The position numbers and the translations under genes were made by a program. Below the pieces are notes generated by a model that worked only from the letters and a program-made list of their open reading frames with translations, searched no databases and had not been told where the DNA came from. This document shows positions 2,471 to 48,448 of a stretch of DNA of 64,000 nucleotides, piece by piece. This DNA comes from Escherichia coli (GTDB taxonomy: Bacteria; Pseudomonadota; Gammaproteobacteria; Enterobacterales; Enterobacteriaceae): assembly GCF_051903065.1 (NCBI RefSeq), contig NZ_CP178438.1; one strand, 5' to 3'. How positions within the stretch are numbered: position 1 is the stretch's first letter; each line of letters opens with the position of its first letter.

Positions 2471-3799
2471 ATGACGTGGAAAGACAGGCTTCAGGATGCG
2501 TCATTTCGCGGCGTACCGTTTAAGGTTGAAGAAGAAAGTGCGGGAACCGGTCGCCGTGTGGAAACACACGAATATCCGAACCGCGACAAGCCCTATACCG
2601 AAGATCTGGGAAAAGTCACTTTCCGCCCGTCCATCACAGCTTATGTGGTGGGAGATGACTGCTTTGACCAGCGCGATCGCCTGATTGACGCGCTGAATAA
2701 ACCCGGTCCCGGCACGCTTGTCCACCCGACATATGGTGAGCTGAAAGTCTGTGTTGACGGGGAAGTTCGGGTCAGCACATCGAAAAGTGAAGGGCGTATT
2801 GTCCGCTTTGACCTGAAGTTTGTCGAAGCAGGAGAACTCTCTTACCCCACATCAGGTGCGGCGACGGCGCAGACGCTGATGTCATCCTGTTCTGCACTGG
2901 ATGACTGCATCAGTGACAGCTTCAGCGGTTTCAGTATCGATGGTGTGGCGGATTTCGTGCAGAACGACGTTATCGGTAATGCCAGCATAATGCTGGGGTA
3001 TGTTTCTGATGCGATGAAAGTGGTGGATTCTGCCGTATCGGATGCCGCCAGGCTGTTGCAGGGGGATATCTCGGTACTTCTGCCGCCGCCATCGTCAGGC
3101 AAAAATTTCGTTGAGCAGGTGCAGAAAATGTGGCGTACCGGGAAACGCCTTTATGGTAACGCCAGCGACCTGGTCACCATGATCAAAACGCTTTCCGGTG
3201 TCAGCCTCGGCAGCGATCTGCAACCGCGCGGCGTCTGGAAAACGGACAGTAAAACCACCGCCACGGCGACGCAGCAGCGTAACGTGGTTGCCAGCACCCT
3301 TCGTACGACCGCAATCAGCGAAGCGGCGTATGCCGTCACACGATTGCCTGCGCCCACAACTTCCGCGGTGATGCAGAATGCCACAGTGGGGCCGTCAACA
3401 ACACCCACGCAGAGCACCGGCTGGCCTTTTGTCACGCATCCGGCACTGAACAATGCACCGGCGGTGAAAAACACGGTTGACCTGCCAACGTGGGAAGAAC
3501 TGACCGACATTCGCGACACACTGAATACGGCAATTGATAAGGAGTTGTCCCGTACAACCAGTGATGCGCTGTTTCTGGCGCTGCGCCGGGTGAAAGCAGA
3601 TCTGAATGCGGATATCAACACGCGCCTTGAACAGTCTGCACGGATCATTCAGCGCACGCCGGATGAGGTTTTACCCGCGCTGGTGCTGGCGGCGACCTGG
3701 TTTGATAACGCGGCGCGTGACGCGGACATTATCCGGCGTAATGCCATTACGCATCCCGGCTTTGTGCCGGTGATCCCTCTGAAGGTGCCAGTGCAATGA
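2471..3799 (+). CDS. Phage DNA circulation protein (Mu gp43/N-like)
   Basis: 442 aa; N-terminus MTWKDRLQDASFRGVPFKVEEE...HEYPNRD matches the Mu-like DNA circulation family as I recall it; located between tape measure and baseplate genes. Confidence 0.7.
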   Translation: MTWKDRLQDASFRGVPFKVEEESAGTGRRVETHEYPNRDKPYTEDLGKVTFRPSITAYVVGDDCFDQRDRLIDALNKPGPGTLVHPTYGELKVCVDGEVRVSTSKSEGRIVRFDLKFVEAGELSYPTSGAATAQTLMSSCSALDDCISDSFSGFSIDGVADFVQNDVIGNASIMLGYVSDAMKVVDSAVSDAARLLQGDISVLLPPPSSGKNFVEQVQKMWRTGKRLYGNASDLVTMIKTLSGVSLGSDLQPRGVWKTDSKTTATATQQRNVVASTLRTTAISEAAYAVTRLPAPTTSAVMQNATVGPSTTPTQSTGWPFVTHPALNNAPAVKNTVDLPTWEELTDIRDTLNTAIDKELSRTTSDALFLALRRVKADLNADINTRLEQSARIIQRTPDEVLPALVLAATWFDNAARDADIIRRNAITHPGFVPVIPLKVPVQ

Positions 3800-15280: not shown

Positions 15281-16360
15281 ATGCAAGCGGCAACTGTTGT
15301 GATTAACCGCCGCGCTCTGCGACACAACCTGCAACGTCTTCGTGAACTGGCTCCTGCCAGTAAAATGGTTGCGGTGGTGAAAGCGAACGCTTATGGTCAC
15401 GGTCTTCTTGAGACCGCGCGAACGCTCCCCGATGCTGACGCCTTTGGCGTAGCCCGTCTCGAAGAAGCTCTGCGACTGCGTGCGGGGGGAATCACCAAAC
15501 CTGTACTGTTACTCGAAGGCTTTTTTGATGCCAGAGATCTGCCGACGATTTCTGCGCAACATTTTCATACCGCCGTGCATAACGAAGAACAGCTGGCTGC
15601 GCTGGAAGAGGCTAGCCTGGACGAGCCGGTTACCGTCTGGATGAAACTCGATACCGGTATGCACCGTCTGGGCGTAAGGCCGGAACAGGCTGAGGCGTTT
15701 TATCATCGCCTGACCCAGTGCAAAAACGTTCGTCAGCCGGTGAATATCGTCAGCCATTTTGCGCGCGCGGATGAACCAAAATGTGGCGCAACCGAGAAAC
15801 AACTCGCTATCTTTAATACCTTTTGCGAAGGCAAACCTGGTCAACGTTCCATTGCCGCATCGGGTGGCATTCTACTCTGGCCACAGTCGCATTTTGACTG
15901 GGTGCGCCCGGGCATCATTCTTTATGGCGTCTCGCCGCTGGAAGATCGCTCCACCGGTGCCGATTTTGGCTGTCAGCCAGTGATGTCACTAACCTCCAGC
16001 CTGATTGCCGTGCGTGAGCATAAAGTCGGAGAGCCTGTCGGTTATGGTGGAACCTGGATAAGCGAACGTGATACTCGTCTTGGTGTAGTTGCGATGGGCT
16101 ATGGCGATGGTTATCCGCGCGCCGCGCCGTCCGGTACGCCAGTGCTGGTGAACGGTCGCGAAGTGCCGATTGTCGGGCGAGTCGCGATGGATATGATCTG
16201 CGTAGACTTAGGTCCACAGGCACAGGATAAAGCCGGGGACCCGGTCATTTTGTGGGGTGAAGGTTTGCCCGTAGAACGTATCGCTGAAATGACGAAAGTA
16301 AGCGCTTACGAACTTATTACGCGCCTGACTTCAAGGGTCGCGATGAAATACGTGGATTAA
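15281..16360 (+). CDS. alr: Alanine racemase, biosynthetic
   Basis: 359 aa; PLP-lysine motif [10 protein letters not shown]. Confidence 0.95.
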
Positions 16361-16385
16361 TCGTTCTGTAATATTTGATTGTCTG

Positions 16386-16417
16386 TGCCGGATGCGGCGT
16401 GAATGCCTTATCCGGCC
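16386..16417. repeat. REP element
   Basis: tgccggatgcggcgtgaatgccttatccggcc. Confidence 0.7.
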
Positions 16418-16612
16418 AATAAAATCCTACCAATTCAATAAGTTGATATTCTTTCATGCTCTTATAAAGGTCGTGCCTCTGGCGGATGTACGTTTGTCAT
16501 GAGTCTCACTCTGTTGCTAATTGCCGGTCGCCCCTGAACATCCACTCGATCTTCGCCTTCTTCCGGTTTATTGTGTTTTAACCACCTGCCCGTAAACCTG
16601 GAGAACCATCGC

Positions 16613-17806
16613 GTGTTTCAAAAAGTTGACGCCTACGCTGGCGACCCGATTCTTACGCTTATGGAGCGTTTTAAAGAAGACCCTCGCAGCGACAAAGTGA
16701 ATTTAAGTATCGGTCTGTACTACAACGAAGACGGAATTATTCCACAACTGAAAGCCGTGGCGGAGGCGGAAGCGCGCCTGAATGCGGTGCCTCATGGCGC
16801 TTCGCTTTATTTACCGATGGAAGGGCTTAACAGCTATCGCCATGCCATTGCGCCGCTGCTGTTTGGTGCCGACCATCCGGTACTGCAACAACAGCGCGTA
16901 GCAACCATTCAAACCCTTGGCGGCTCAGGGGCATTGAAAGTGGGCGCGGATTTCCTGAAACGCTACTTTCCGGAATCAGGCGTCTGGGTCAGCGATCCTA
17001 CCTGGGAAAACCACGTAGCAATATTCGCCGGGGCTGGATTCGAAGTGAGTACTTACCCCTGGTATGACGAAGCGACTAACGGCGTGCGCTTTAATGACCT
17101 GTTGGCGACGCTGAAAACATTACCTGCCCGCAGTATTGTGTTGCTGCATCCATGTTGCCACAACCCAACGGGTGCCGATCTCACTAATGACCAGTGGGAT
17201 GCGGTGATTGAAATTCTCAAAGCCCGCGAACTTATCCCATTCCTTGATATTGCCTATCAAGGATTTGGTGCCGGTATGGAAGAGGATGCCTACGCCATTC
17301 GCGCCATTGCCAGCGCTGGATTACCCGCTCTGGTGAGCAATTCGTTCTCGAAAATTTTCTCCCTTTACGGCGAGCGCGTTGGCGGACTTTCTGTTCTGTG
17401 TGAAGATGCCGAAGCTGCAGGCCGCGTACTGGGGCAATTGAAAGCAACAGTTCGCCGCAACTACTCCAGCCCGCCGAATTTTGGTGCGCAGGTGGTGGCT
17501 GCGGTGCTGAATGACGAGGCATTGAAAGCCAGCTGGCTGGCGGAAGTAGAAGAGATGCGTACTCGCATTCTGGCAATGCGTCAGGAACTGGTGAAGGTAT
17601 TGAGCACAGAGATGCCAGAACGCAATTTCGATTATCTGCTTAATCAGCGCGGCATGTTCAGTTATACAGGTTTAAGTGCCGCTCAGGTTGACCGACTACG
17701 TGAGGAGTTTGGTGTTTATCTCATCGCCAGCGGTCGCATGTGTGTCGCCGGGTTAAATACGGCAAATGTACAACGTGTGGCAAAGGCGTTTGCTGCGGTG
17801 ATGTAA
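16613..17806 (+). CDS. tyrB: Aromatic amino acid aminotransferase
   Basis: 397 aa starting at GTG ([14 protein letters not shown]...); track ORF begins at an upstream ATG. Confidence 0.9.
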
Positions 17807-32785: not shown

Positions 32786-34746
<1,961 letters not shown>

Positions 34747-34835
34747 CACAGATTCTCCAGAGGTAATGTAGGGATTGTTTTAATTCCCGCTCCCTTATGG
34801 GAGAAGGTTAACGCTCGGGTAACCCTTGCCGAATG

Positions 34836-34941
34836 TAGGCCGGATAAGGCGTTATACGCCGCATCCGGCAATCAATGCCTGATGCGACGCTGTCGCGTCT
34901 TATCAGGCCTACAAACCGTTACCGACTCGCATCCGGCAATT
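34836..34941. repeat. REP/BIME cluster between yjcH and acs
   Basis: gccggataaggcgttatacgccgcatccggca and gcctgatgcgacgctgtcgcgtcttatcaggcctac REP units. Confidence 0.85.
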
Positions 34942-34946
34942 GTGGG

Positions 34947-38734
<3,788 letters not shown>

Positions 38735-44014: not shown

Positions 44015-45328
44015 ATGAAAAATATAAAATTCAGCCTGGCCTGGCAGATTCTGTTTGCTATGGTGCTGGGCATTCTCCTGGGAAGCTACCTGCACTACCA
44101 TAGCGACAGCCGCGACTGGCTGGTCGTCAATTTGCTCTCTCCGGCGGGTGATATCTTCATCCATCTGATCAAAATGATTGTTGTGCCGATTGTGATCTCC
44201 ACGCTGGTGGTGGGTATCGCGGGTGTTGGTGATGCCAAACAGCTCGGGCGTATTGGCGCGAAAACCATTATCTACTTCGAGGTGATCACCACCGTCGCCA
44301 TCATTTTGGGGATCACTCTGGCGAACGTCTTCCAGCCCGGTGCCGGGGTGGATATGTCGCAGCTGGCGACCGTCGATATCTCGAAATATCAGAGCACTAC
44401 GGAAGCGGTACAAAGCAGTTCCCACGGCATTATGGGCACGATTTTGTCGCTGGTGCCGACGAACATTGTGGCGTCGATGGCGAAAGGCGAAATGCTGCCG
44501 ATCATCTTCTTCTCGGTGCTGTTTGGTCTGGGGCTTTCCTCCCTGCCCGCGACGCATCGTGAACCGCTGGTGACCGTGTTCCGCTCCATCTCTGAAACCA
44601 TGTTTAAAGTGACTCACATGGTGATGCGTTATGCGCCGGTGGGTGTGTTTGCGCTGATTGCGGTGACGGTGGCTAACTTTGGTTTCTCTTCTCTGTGGCC
44701 ACTGGCGAAACTGGTGCTGCTGGTGCATTTCGCCATTCTGTTCTTCGCGCTGGTAGTGCTGGGAATTGTGGCGCGCCTGTGCGGGTTAAGCGTCTGGATC
44801 CTGATTCGTATTCTGAAAGATGAGCTGATTCTGGCGTACTCCACTGCCAGCTCTGAAAGCGTACTGCCGCGAATTATTGAGAAGATGGAAGCCTACGGAG
44901 CACCGGCGTCGATCACCAGCTTCGTGGTGCCGACCGGTTACTCTTTTAACCTTGATGGTTCGACGCTGTATCAAAGTATTGCCGCTATTTTCATCGCTCA
45001 GCTGTATGGCATTGACCTGTCCATCTGGCAGGAAATCATTCTGGTGCTGACGCTGATGGTGACCTCGAAAGGGATTGCTGGCGTGCCGGGCGTGTCGTTT
45101 GTGGTGTTGCTGGCAACGCTGGGTAGCGTAGGTATTCCGCTGGAAGGTCTGGCGTTTATTGCTGGTGTTGACCGTATCCTCGACATGGCGCGTACTGCGC
45201 TGAACGTGGTGGGTAATGCGCTGGCGGTGCTGGTGATTGCCAAGTGGGAACACAAATTTGACCGCAAAAAGGCGCTGGCTTATGAGCGTGAAGTGCTGGG
45301 CAAATTTGATAAAACTGCGGATCAATAA
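44015..45328 (+). CDS. gltP: Glutamate/aspartate:proton symporter
   Basis: 437 aa; recognised GltP. Confidence 0.97.
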   Translation: MKNIKFSLAWQILFAMVLGILLGSYLHYHSDSRDWLVVNLLSPAGDIFIHLIKMIVVPIVISTLVVGIAGVGDAKQLGRIGAKTIIYFEVITTVAIILGITLANVFQPGAGVDMSQLATVDISKYQSTTEAVQSSSHGIMGTILSLVPTNIVASMAKGEMLPIIFFSVLFGLGLSSLPATHREPLVTVFRSISETMFKVTHMVMRYAPVGVFALIAVTVANFGFSSLWPLAKLVLLVHFAILFFALVVLGIVARLCGLSVWILIRILKDELILAYSTASSESVLPRIIEKMEAYGAPASITSFVVPTGYSFNLDGSTLYQSIAAIFIAQLYGIDLSIWQEIILVLTLMVTSKGIAGVPGVSFVVLLATLGSVGIPLEGLAFIAGVDRILDMARTALNVVGNALAVLVIAKWEHKFDRKKALAYEREVLGKFDKTADQ

Positions 45329-45338
45329 TTGAAGATTG

Positions 45339-45517
45339 CCGGGGTTATCCCCCGGCAATGTGTGGATGCCTGATGCGACGCTGGTGCGTCTTATCAGGCC
45401 TACGTCAGACAGCGCAATAGCCTGATTTAGCGTGATTTTGTAGGTCGGATAAGGCGTTTACGCCGCATCCGACATCAACGCCTGATGCGACGCTTAACGC
45501 GTCTTATCAGGCCTACC
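45339..45517. repeat. BIME (multiple REP units) downstream of gltP
   Basis: Hairpin gccggggttatcccccggc followed by repeated gcctgatgcgacgc...gtcttatcaggcctac and ggataaggcgtttacgccgcatcc units. Confidence 0.85.
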
Positions 45518-46207
45518 TTAACCGTTGGTTAATTTTTCAAACTCTTCACACCCGGTATCAAACCCTTCCATACAGCTCAGGTTCAACCAGTGCAGCGCCT
45601 TTTGTTTATTCTTCTCGATAAAACCTTCTTCACCGTTTAAGAACATCATTCCCGCCCAGTACTCGGAATAACCGGTTCGGGAAATTGCAGAGCTGCGTTT
45701 GAAATACCAGGTTGCCTTGTCATCGTCGGCCTTAATGCCCACGCCGTTGGCGTAAATCAAACCAAGCAGCATTTGGGCATCGACGGCAGAGTCGTTCTCC
45801 AGATCTTCCGAGGCGTTTTCTAACAGCGAAATCGCCTTTGGATAATCCGGTTTGCCCGCTTGAGTATTTACCAGAATATGCGCCAGCGTTACTTCACCTT
45901 CTTTACTGCCCGCTTGCGCCGCTTTCTCTGCAAGAACTTTTGCTTGTGGATAGTCCAGACTGACCGGATTGGTGATTTTGATCTGCGCCAACAGCGCGCA
46001 GGCATCAGCATCACCGCTGTCGGCGGCTTTCTGTGCCCAATATTCGGCTTTGCTCAAATCGCCGGAGCTAAACCAGCTGTCGGCAAGAAAATATTGTGCG
46101 CGTCGGTCCCCGGCCTCTGCTGCCTTTAAATACTGGCTGCCAGGCTCGGAGTCGTTGGCGTGGGCAAAGAATGTCAAAAACAACATCAATGCGATAATTT
46201 TTTTCAT
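45518..46207 (-). CDS. yjcO: Sel1-repeat protein
   Basis: 229 aa; signal peptide; repeated ...AQ..LA..Y..G.GV..D..KA..W... units. Confidence 0.9.
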   Translation of the reverse strand: MKKIIALMLFLTFFAHANDSEPGSQYLKAAEAGDRRAQYFLADSWFSSGDLSKAEYWAQKAADSGDADACALLAQIKITNPVSLDYPQAKVLAEKAAQAGSKEGEVTLAHILVNTQAGKPDYPKAISLLENASEDLENDSAVDAQMLLGLIYANGVGIKADDDKATWYFKRSSAISRTGYSEYWAGMMFLNGEEGFIEKNKQKALHWLNLSCMEGFDTGCEEFEKLTNG

Positions 46208-46300: not shown

Positions 46301-48448
46301 TTACGCCAGTGCCGCTTCGCGCAGGCGAGTTTTCAACTTGTTGTACTCGTCAATCACGTACTGCTCGGCGGCGCGCTGATCGGCGATCGGCTCGACGCGC
46401 ACGGCGCAGTATTTGTATTCCGGCGTTTTCGTAATCGGGCTTAAGTTTTCGGTAACCAGCTCGTTACAGGCACCAATCCACCACTGGTAGGTCATGTAAA
46501 TCGCCCCTTTGTTCGGACGATCGCTGACCTGCGCACGGGTGATAATTTTGCCTTTACGCGAGTGCACCCAAACCAATGCCTCATCTTCAATACCCAGACG
46601 TTTGGCGTCTTCGGTATTGATTTGTGCGTAGCCAGGTTCATCCGCCAGCGCCGCCAGTGCCGCACAGTTACCGGTCATCGAACGGCAAGAGTAGTGACCA
46701 ACTTCACGCACCGTTGACAGTACCATCGGGTACTCGTCGGTGAGTTTGTCGATTGGCGCTACCCAGTCGCAGGTGAAGAACTGCGCCAGACCGTTCGGGG
46801 TATCAAACTTCTCTTTAAACAGATAAGAAGTCCCCTGATCGGCATCTGAAGTATCGCGGCAAGGCCACTGAATGAAGCCCAGTTCGCCCATTTTCTCGTA
46901 AGTCGCACCGTAGAAATCCGGGCACAGATGACGCAACTCATCCCAGATCTCCTGGGTGTTGTTGTAGTGCATCGGATAACCCATACGGGTGGCGATTTCA
47001 CTGATGATTTGCCAGTCCGTTTTCAGATCCCATTTCGGTTCAACTGCTTTGAAGAAACGCTGGAAGCCACGGTCAGCCGCAGTAAACACGCCTTCATGCT
47101 CGCCCCACGACGTTGACGGTAAAATAACATCCGCCGCCGACGCGGTTTTGGTCATAAAGATGTCCTGAACGATAACCAGTTCCAGATCTTCAAAGGCTTT
47201 ACGTACTGCCGACAGCTCCGCGTCAGTTTGCAGCGGATCTTCGCCCATAATGTACGCGGCACGCACTTCGCCATGCGCTGCGCGGTGCGGCAGCTCGCTG
47301 ATGCGATAGCCGGTATGCGCTGGCAGGCTTTCCACACCCCAGGCTTTGGCGAATTTCTCGCGGTTAGCCGGATCTTTCACGTACTGGTATCCCGGATACG
47401 TATCCGGCAGCGCGCCCATATCGCAGGCACCCTGCACGTTGTTCTGACCACGAACCGGGTTTACACCCGCATGCGGCTTACCGAGGTTACCGGTCAGCAT
47501 CGCGAGGCTGGTCAGAGAACGCACGGTTTCCACGCCCTGGTAGAACTGGGTTACACCCATGCCCCACAGGATGGCGGCGCTTTTCGCCTGGGCATACATC
47601 CGTGCCGCCTGACGAATCTCACTGGCGCTGACGCCGGTGATATCTTCAACCGACTCCGGCGTGTAGCCTTCAACGATTTTACGATACTCTTCAAAGCCTT
47701 CTGTACGTGAAGCGACGAACGCTTTGTCGTACAGATTTTCTTCAATAATGACATGGCCCATCGCATTCAACAGCGCGATGTTCGAGCCGTTTTTCAGTGC
47801 AATGTGCATGTCAGCAATGCGCGCGGTTTCAATTTTGCGCGGATCGCAGACGATAATTTTCGCCCCGTTACGTTTAGCGTTAATTACGTGATTCGCCACG
47901 ATTGGGTGGGAATCCGCCGGGTTGTACCCGAAAACGAACACTAAATCGGTATTATCAATTTCGTTAATAGCATTGCTCATTGCGCCATTACCGACCGATT
48001 GGTGCAGACCTGCAACCGATGGGCCGTGTCAGACACGAGCGCAGCAGTCAACGTTATTGGTACCAATAACGGCGCGCGCAAATTTTTGCATTACATAGTT
48101 GGTTTCGTTACCCGTACCACGCGAGGAGCCGGTCGTCTGGATGGCATCCGGACCGTACTTCTCTTTGATGGCGCTCAGGCGCTCGGCAACGTAATTCAGT
48201 GCCTCATCCCAGGAAACAGGTTCGAGTTTGCCGCCACGCTGGCGACGGATCATGGGGGTTTTCAGGCGCGGGGTCAGGATCTGGGTATCGTTAATGAAAT
48301 CCCAGCCATAATAACCCTTCAGACACAGGGTACCCTGGTTGGTTTTCCCCTGCGCTGCCTCCGCCCGGACGATTTTGCCGTTATCGACGACCAGGTTGAT
48401 TTTGCAACCTGATGCGCAATAGGGGCAAACCGTGACGACTTTTTTCAT
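46301..48448 (-). CDS. fdhF: Formate dehydrogenase H (selenoprotein; in-frame TGA = Sec140)
   Basis: The two track ORFs 48029..48448 and 46301..47980 are in the same frame, separated only by TGA at 48029-48031; combined 715 aa; N-terminal CPYCASGC Fe-S motif; SECIS immediately 3' of the TGA. Confidence 0.95.
47988..48028 (-). other. SECIS element (selenocysteine insertion sequence) of fdhF
   Basis: mRNA reads UGA-CACGGCCCAUCGGUUGCAGGUCUGCACCAAUCGGUCGGUAAUGGC, the classic fdhF SECIS stem-loop. Confidence 0.9.

Follow-up and report, generated by a model that had tools for sequence, protein, structure and literature searches.

The window, i.e., the whole stretch of 64,000 nt (64 kb) of Escherichia coli DNA that was analyzed, shows in the region 34400-35400 an identity of 100% with E. 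coli O145 RM9872 and of 98.5% with K-12. Gene positions were derived from open reading frames and from the RefSeq annotation of matching records. REP units were observed at three sites, namely in the acs-yjcH spacer, in the gltP-yjcO spacer, and downstream of alr. The first site is bordered by acs (34947-36905(-), stop codon 34949-34947) and yjcH (34432-34746(-)), which is followed by actP (32786-34435(-)). The second is situated between the stop codons of the convergent genes gltP (TAA, 45326-45328(+)) and yjcO (TAA, 45520-45518(-)), and the third between alr (15281-16360(+), TAA stop codon at 16358-16360) and tyrB (start at 16613(+)). In total, the window contains six complete REP units and a truncated one, all of which are located within these three sites, and every unit is intergenic with respect to the annotated genes.

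Separate patterns were used for Y and Z2 units, which differ in loop length. With up to three mismatches, these consensus patterns matched two Y and two Z2 units, compared to 0.00 matches expected from 100 dinucleotide-preserving shuffles. A half-site scan combined with arm pairing raised this inventory to the full set, including a variant Y unit at 45440-45473, which was recognized by arm pairing and not by the fuzzy regular expression. No further complete REP unit was found elsewhere in the 64 kb when both strands were scanned with half-site seeds. An exact occurrence of the 10-mer GCCGGATGCG at 3435-3444(-) lacks a matching 3' arm and was treated as a chance match. The six units are 34-37 nt long with 0-3 differences to the Y or Z2 consensus, and, except for the alr unit, which has CAAT instead of the conserved CTAC, all of them (5 out of 6) possess the conserved GTAG/CTAC foot. 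Queries containing a REP unit matched a median of 4-7 places per genome and flank-only queries a single one, which identifies the units as members of a dispersed multi-copy repeat. The REP palindromes which the original prediction had placed at the three sites are canonical and lie within 1-2 nt of its coordinates; the REP/BIME identity of these sites is confirmed as real, correctly recognized, and ordinary.

In the acs-yjcH spacer (34747-34946, 200 bp), a Y-type unit (34835-34869(-)) and a Z2-type unit (34877-34912(+)) are separated by the 7-nt head-to-head linker AATCAAT (34870-34876), with folding energies in the operon-sense RNA of -22.1 and -21.9 kcal/mol, respectively. Starting 8 nt past the acs stop codon, a further segment (34913-34939(-)) is composed of the 15-nt tail linker AAACCGTTACCGACT and a truncated Y unit, of which only the 5' arm GCCGGATGCG (34928-34937(-)) is present. 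The left flank (34821-34834) contains a ACCCTTGCCGAAT-like motif, which reproduces the 14-nt tail-to-tail linker (AGCCGTTGCCGAAT) found between the units of multi-copy strains. This left flank and the truncated Y unit are the window's counterparts of the linker and the Y in the repeat unit. Due to the resemblance of the tail linker to a REP head, the BIME flanks (34818-34835 and 34928-34949) form an inverted repeat (TAACCC..TTGCCGGATG / CATTCGGCAAGGGTTA), which in the predicted fold of the operon-sense RNA closes the two-hairpin unit into one multibranch structure. The conserved 88 nt reaching from the BIME to the yjcH start contain two small hairpins at 34775-34806, CTCCC-TTAT-GGGAG and GGGATTGTTTTAATTCCC, which occur in all alleles fetched except for the dispersed-repeat allele described below.

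No promoter-like or terminator-like site was found in the 200-bp acs-yjcH spacer. Since, furthermore, acs, yjcH, and actP constitute one operon (PMC6498577), the REP cluster between acs and yjcH is intercistronic. Operon boundaries, at which all three clusters had been presumed to lie, are thus an appropriate description for alr and for the convergent pair gltP/yjcO, but not for the cluster inside the acs-yjcH-actP operon.

In case of the gltP-yjcO spacer (45329-45517), a GC-rich hairpin which is not a REP (TTGCCGGGG-TTATC-CCCCGGCAA, 45336-45358(+), -19.3 kcal/mol) is situated 8 nt past the gltP stop codon. Due to the missing T-run, it is not a canonical intrinsic terminator. The REP array begins with a Z2-type unit (45368-45403(+)) and continues with the 36-nt tail-to-tail linker GTCAGACAGCGCAATAGCCTGATTTAGCGTGATTTT (45404-45439), which belongs to the 113-bp repeat unit of this spacer, the variant Y-type unit (GTCGGATG...CCGAC, 45440-45473(-)), the 6-nt head-to-head linker ATCAAC (45474-45479), and a further Z2-type unit (45480-45516(+)), the minus-strand stem of which starts 5 nt past the yjcO stop codon. 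A multi-unit BIME had been predicted at 45339-45517 after gltP; the BIME is indeed present, but the assigned start at 45339 falls into the separate non-REP hairpin. Neither a canonical intrinsic terminator on either strand nor a promoter-like site was found in the spacer 45329-45517. Due to the fact that a canonical terminator is lacking here, the REP array and the gltP-proximal hairpin represent the sole strong 3' structures for both gltP and yjcO. Liang, Rudd and Deutscher (2015) reportedly observed that REPs within approximately 15 nt of a stop codon cause ribosome stalling and reduce the expression of the gene upstream. As the yjcO stop codon is only 5 nt away from the REP stem (45512-45520, minus strand), ribosomes may stall on yjcO, and by analogy an effect on YjcO synthesis is possible.

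The alr site harbors a solitary Y-type unit (GCCGGATGCGGCGTGAATGCCTTATCCGGCCAAT, 16387-16420(+), stem-loop 16387-16416) 26 nt past the alr stop codon, with a folding energy of -20.8 kcal/mol in the alr-sense RNA. It occurs as one copy in approximately 84% of the genomes, and its number is invariant wherever the segment exists. In approximately 16% of the genomes, including Nissle, a 1.58-kb cassette exactly replaces the 173-bp segment that bears the REP (window 16362-16534; Nissle L015:2863-4445). This cassette comprises a pnuC-like transporter gene and a gene encoding an AAA-family ATPase, and beyond it homology sets in again 78 bp ahead of the tyrB start.

The predicted folds of both BIME spacers contain a separate hairpin for each REP, with -83.5 kcal/mol (z = -6.6 versus shuffles) for the acs-yjcH spacer RNA in operon sense and -98 kcal/mol (z = -7.2 versus shuffles) for the gltP-yjcO spacer RNA. 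Single units reach -19 to -22 kcal/mol in whichever orientation. Covariation was analyzed on 87 units, 27 of them distinct, which were collected from the window and 15 other strains, aligned, and scored for the pairs of the standard two-stem hairpin with an internal mismatch, the stems being separated by a two-nucleotide unpaired bulge. Among the 27 distinct copies, 96.1% of the cells were paired, compared to 25-43% when the partners were slid. Compensatory double changes were observed in 4 out of 12 pairs, e.g., C-G to U-A, and none of the shuffles yielded a covariation score as high as the one observed. The variant Y at gltP is an example of such a compensated change, carrying GTCGG...CCGAC in place of the usual GCCGG...CCGGC (C-G to T-A). 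The REP hairpins are thus supported by covariation.

In BIME-2 elements, a short linker joins Y and Z2 units of inverse orientation, and the elements occur in tandem copies of strain-variable number, whereas BIME-1 elements are by definition composed of Y, Z1, and a conserved long L linker, often with an IHF site (PMC3333891). Inverse Y/Z2 pairs with short linkers are present in the window as Y(-) AATCAAT Z2(+) at 34835-34912 and as Y(-) ATCAAC Z2(+) at 45440-45516. On account of these Y/Z2 units with head-to-head linkers of 6-7 nt, both the acs-yjcH and the gltP-yjcO elements were assigned to BIME-2. The gltP-yjcO array is BIME-2-like, and depending on the nomenclature its 36-nt tail linker could make it an "atypical" BIME.

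Binding of IHF had also been proposed for these elements, which would make them BIME-1 (RIP/RIB) sites, a reading that we consider highly improbable. It is favored by TATCAACTTATTG, an exact match to the IHF consensus WATCAANNNNTTR at 16436-16448(-), 16 nt past the alr REP, and by the scarcity of such exact matches, 7 of which occur on both strands of the whole 64 kb. However, in K-12 the first consensus position of this site is mismatched, no second REP is situated alongside, and each of the 4539 genomes carrying the flank has a single copy of it, so that it was rejected as a repeated IHF-binding L linker. Moreover, no Z1 unit was found anywhere in the 64-kb window, and the linkers of the BIMEs contain no exact IHF consensus but only matches with one mismatch. 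The combination of Y, Z1, and an L linker with an IHF site does not occur in the window, and the IHF-binding reading is therefore not supported for the BIMEs.

Strain alleles of both BIME loci were fetched individually and annotated unit by unit. The acs-yjcH locus contains 1-4 Y-Z2 pairs with a repeat unit of 91 bp and spacers of 199-472 bp. One pair is present in the window (200 bp) and in K-12 (199 bp), two pairs in E2348/69 (291 bp) and UTI89, three in Nissle (393 bp), and four in WP8-S17-ESBL-12 (472 bp). In case of gltP-yjcO, 1-16 REP units were observed in spacers of 77-940 bp that differ in 113-bp steps: a single unit (Z2 only) in TW10590 (77 bp), 3 in the window (189 bp), 5 in RM9088 (303 bp), about 8 in ST131 (488 bp), 9 in the K-12 strain NCM3722 (530 bp, L017:501-1030), 11 in MG1655 (641 bp, L001:13796-14436), and 16 in MP1 (940 bp). 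The spacer of C600 is, as in NCM3722, 530 bp long. The 11 units of MG1655 versus the 9 of NCM3722 indicate that the array changed by one 113-bp unit inside the K-12 laboratory lineage, i.e., that it changes fast enough to differ within this lineage.

Frequencies were estimated from a systematic sample of 59 genomes per search with flank-only queries, which were chosen to avoid a bias by spacer length, and spacer lengths were taken from the span of the joined matches. Of the acs-yjcH spacers, 61% are 199-200 bp long, 19% are one-pair variants of 209-212 bp, 14% are expanded (268-472 bp), and 7% (225-226 bp) represent the dispersed-repeat allele, in which the BIME is lost. For gltP-yjcO, the one-unit spacer of 77-78 bp accounts for 44%, spacers of 177-191 bp, among them the window type with 189 bp, for 8%, spacers of at least 303 bp for about 46%, and a single allele of 147 bp for the remaining 2%. 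Due to the 44% of genomes with one unit at gltP-yjcO and the approximately 7% without the BIME at acs-yjcH, no particular copy number is required. The cross-genome comparison thus corroborates the strain-variable copy number proposed for the three sites in case of acs-yjcH and gltP-yjcO, but not in case of alr, where a presence/absence polymorphism is found instead.

The gltP-yjcO BIME of MG1655 is a published substrate of RayT with TnpA_REP cleavage sites mapped in its linker in vitro, and RayT is able to cleave and recombine BIMEs in vitro (PMC3333891). The rayT gene is absent from the 64-kb window and was detected in 3574 out of 5426 E. coli genomes (66%), in agreement with the published frequency of 74 out of 110 (PMC3333891). 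In ETEC1749 (L018:301-568), a 68-bp tandem duplication comprises truncated Y, linker, Z2, and linker on an allele of the window type, which fits slippage or unequal recombination and not the insertion of a new element. Slippage or unequal recombination among tandem units is the simpler explanation for changes in copy number at these loci. Some members of the B2 clade have reportedly lost rayT. As long arrays occur in B2 strains, tandem unit changes would not need to involve rayT.

Two further alleles differ from this pattern in other ways. Strain 98210 (L006:566-725, corresponding to window 34765-34927) lacks the acs-yjcH BIME and carries a dispersed intergenic repeat of approximately 123 nt together with a complete Y unit adjoining the acs stop codon. 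This dispersed-repeat allele, in which both the BIME and the yjcH-proximal hairpins are replaced, but a complete Y unit is retained at the acs stop codon in place of the truncated one of the window, occurs in 336 genomes, about 6-7% of E. coli. Per genome, a median of 3 copies of the repeat, 73-77% alike, is detectable, and the repeat presumably resembles ERIC/IRU elements. In UPEC85 (L021), a truncated yjcH gene is joined directly to a truncated yjdM gene, implying a loss of the interval from acs to yjdM. A BIME-to-BIME deletion was rejected for this strain, as both breakpoints are located inside coding sequences and not in REPs; the junction may reflect either a genuine deletion or a faulty assembly.

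Stabilization of mRNA and binding of gyrase are published functions of the REP/BIME class (PMC6379681; bioRxiv 10.64898/2026.03.23.713779), with which the roles named in the original prediction agree; at the loci considered here, these roles would apply by analogy. REP325 in the yjdMN operon stabilizes the upstream message and acts as a partial Rho-dependent terminator toward the downstream gene (bioRxiv 10.64898/2026.03.23.713779). According to the same study, tandem gene pairs with a REP tend genome-wide to upstream-biased expression and convergent pairs with an intervening REP to higher expression of both genes, with large scatter in either case; REP effects are context-dependent, and mRNA half-lives are not generally lengthened by terminal REPs. 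BIME-2 elements are enriched in gyrase cleavage sites, independently of transcription and mainly in Y units (PMC6379681). No mention of the three window loci was found in the supplementary text of this gyrase Topo-seq study (PMC6379681).

Transferred to the window, a transcribed REP unit would fold into a hairpin of about -20 kcal/mol that stops 3'-to-5' exonucleases and favors a partial termination which for the most part depends on Rho. The single hairpin downstream of alr would mark the alr 3' end ahead of tyrB, and the gltP-yjcO array would provide both convergent genes with a common 3'-end structure that works in either direction. By analogy to REP325, the acs-yjcH BIME should favor acs over yjcH-actP: it would stabilize the upstream acs segment, attenuate read-through into yjcH-actP, and in this way set the enzyme:transporter ratio inside one operon. 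On the DNA level, both BIME-2 sites are probable sites of transcription-independent gyrase binding and cleavage. Local 3'-end stabilization and partial termination at the mRNA level, together with gyrase binding at the DNA level, are thus most likely the roles of these elements, judged by what is published for their class.

It is tempting to speculate, though we regard it as rather doubtful, that the pair number at acs-yjcH is a heritable, lineage-specific dial on transcription from acs into yjcH-actP and on mRNA stability, and that the gltP-yjcO array tunes both convergent genes. If so, the pair number at acs-yjcH would tune acetate scavenging without any change of promoter or coding sequence. 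The stable double hairpin inside the acetate operon matters for the reading of expression data on acs versus yjcH-actP, and the same applies to gltP and yjcO, where the REP array stands in place of any canonical terminator. The several-fold differences between strains in the length of both spacers lend themselves to strain typing and are a pitfall for assembly from short reads.

Alternatively, the Y-Z2 pairs might encode a discrete small RNA belonging to the naRNA4 family, which would bind HU, bridge DNA cruciforms, and condense the nucleoid. The Rfam model RF02564 (naRNA4) matches 34838-34909(+) with 76.9 bits and 45443-45513(+) with 75.2 bits at a gathering score of 59.5, and naRNA4 from REP325 has been described to bind HU and to condense DNA (PMC4550694). 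However, this model represents one Y-linker-Z2 unit of REP325 and consequently matches any BIME-2. At acs-yjcH, moreover, the matching strand is antisense to the sole known transcript, the spacer is devoid of a promoter-like site, and the operon-sense strand scores 55.1 bits, i.e., below the threshold. A study with Adhya, an author of the original naRNA4 paper, among its authors observed no HU-naRNA4-cruciform complex, an unchanged nucleoid upon deletion or overexpression of REP325, and approximately 1-2 copies of REP325 RNA per cell (bioRxiv 10.64898/2026.03.23.713779). A small-RNA gene at these positions is extremely improbable; judging from the sequences matched, the naRNA4 hits re-detect the Y-Z2 pairs and in this way confirm the BIME-2 identity. 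Further Rfam matches at gathering level in the window are the Hfq-binding sRNA SraL (27460-27600(-), 153 bits) and a bacterial selenocysteine insertion element (47982-48036(-), 87 bits), both of which are known features and the latter of which presumably belongs to fdhF.

That the hairpins are ordinary Rho-independent terminators which resemble REPs by chance is the least credible reading, as, although stable GC-rich hairpins do occur at the 3' ends of alr, gltP, and yjcO, each of them lacks a subsequent T-run, the terminator scan of both BIME spacers remained empty, the sequences match a dispersed repeat family and not locus-specific hairpins, and the acs-yjcH cluster lies inside a co-transcribed operon. 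Taken as a whole, we are highly confident that the three sites are best explained as canonical E. coli REPs, to which roles in mRNA and on DNA may be ascribed by analogy. All essentials of this explanation are already known, REP/BIME elements having been described since the 1980s. Added here are the exact map of the units, the correction to an intra-operonic position for acs-yjcH, the exclusion of the IHF-type class, and the quantification of the copy-number polymorphism.

In comparison with the REP325/naRNA4 locus (yjdM-yjdN, 12 units; PMC4550694), the Y-Z2 unit is common to both, the acs-yjcH cluster is likewise located between two co-transcribed tandem genes, and the gltP-yjcO units have the same sense to gltP as REP325 to yjdM. 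In contrast to REP325, far fewer units are present in this window, and gltP-yjcO is a convergent and not a tandem gene pair. With respect to transcription, the acs-yjcH units face the opposite way to those of REP325, which speaks against the functional analogy. Furthermore, the head-to-head linker comprises 6-7 nt here versus 13 nt in the naRNA4 model, this 6-nt shortening being the sole difference in the alignment. Inverted REP doublets as well as the GTAG/CTAC foot and the RayT-required stem mismatch in 5 out of 6 units are shared with REPIN-RAYT systems, but the changes observed here are tandem gains and losses of whole units at fixed loci and not new insertions. With BIME-2 elements the loci share alternating Y and Z2 units, head-to-head linkers of 6-7 nt, an intergenic location, and a locus copy number that differs by strain, whereas the short arrays of the window comprise 1 pair (acs-yjcH) and 1.5 pairs (gltP-yjcO), compared to 11 units in MG1655.
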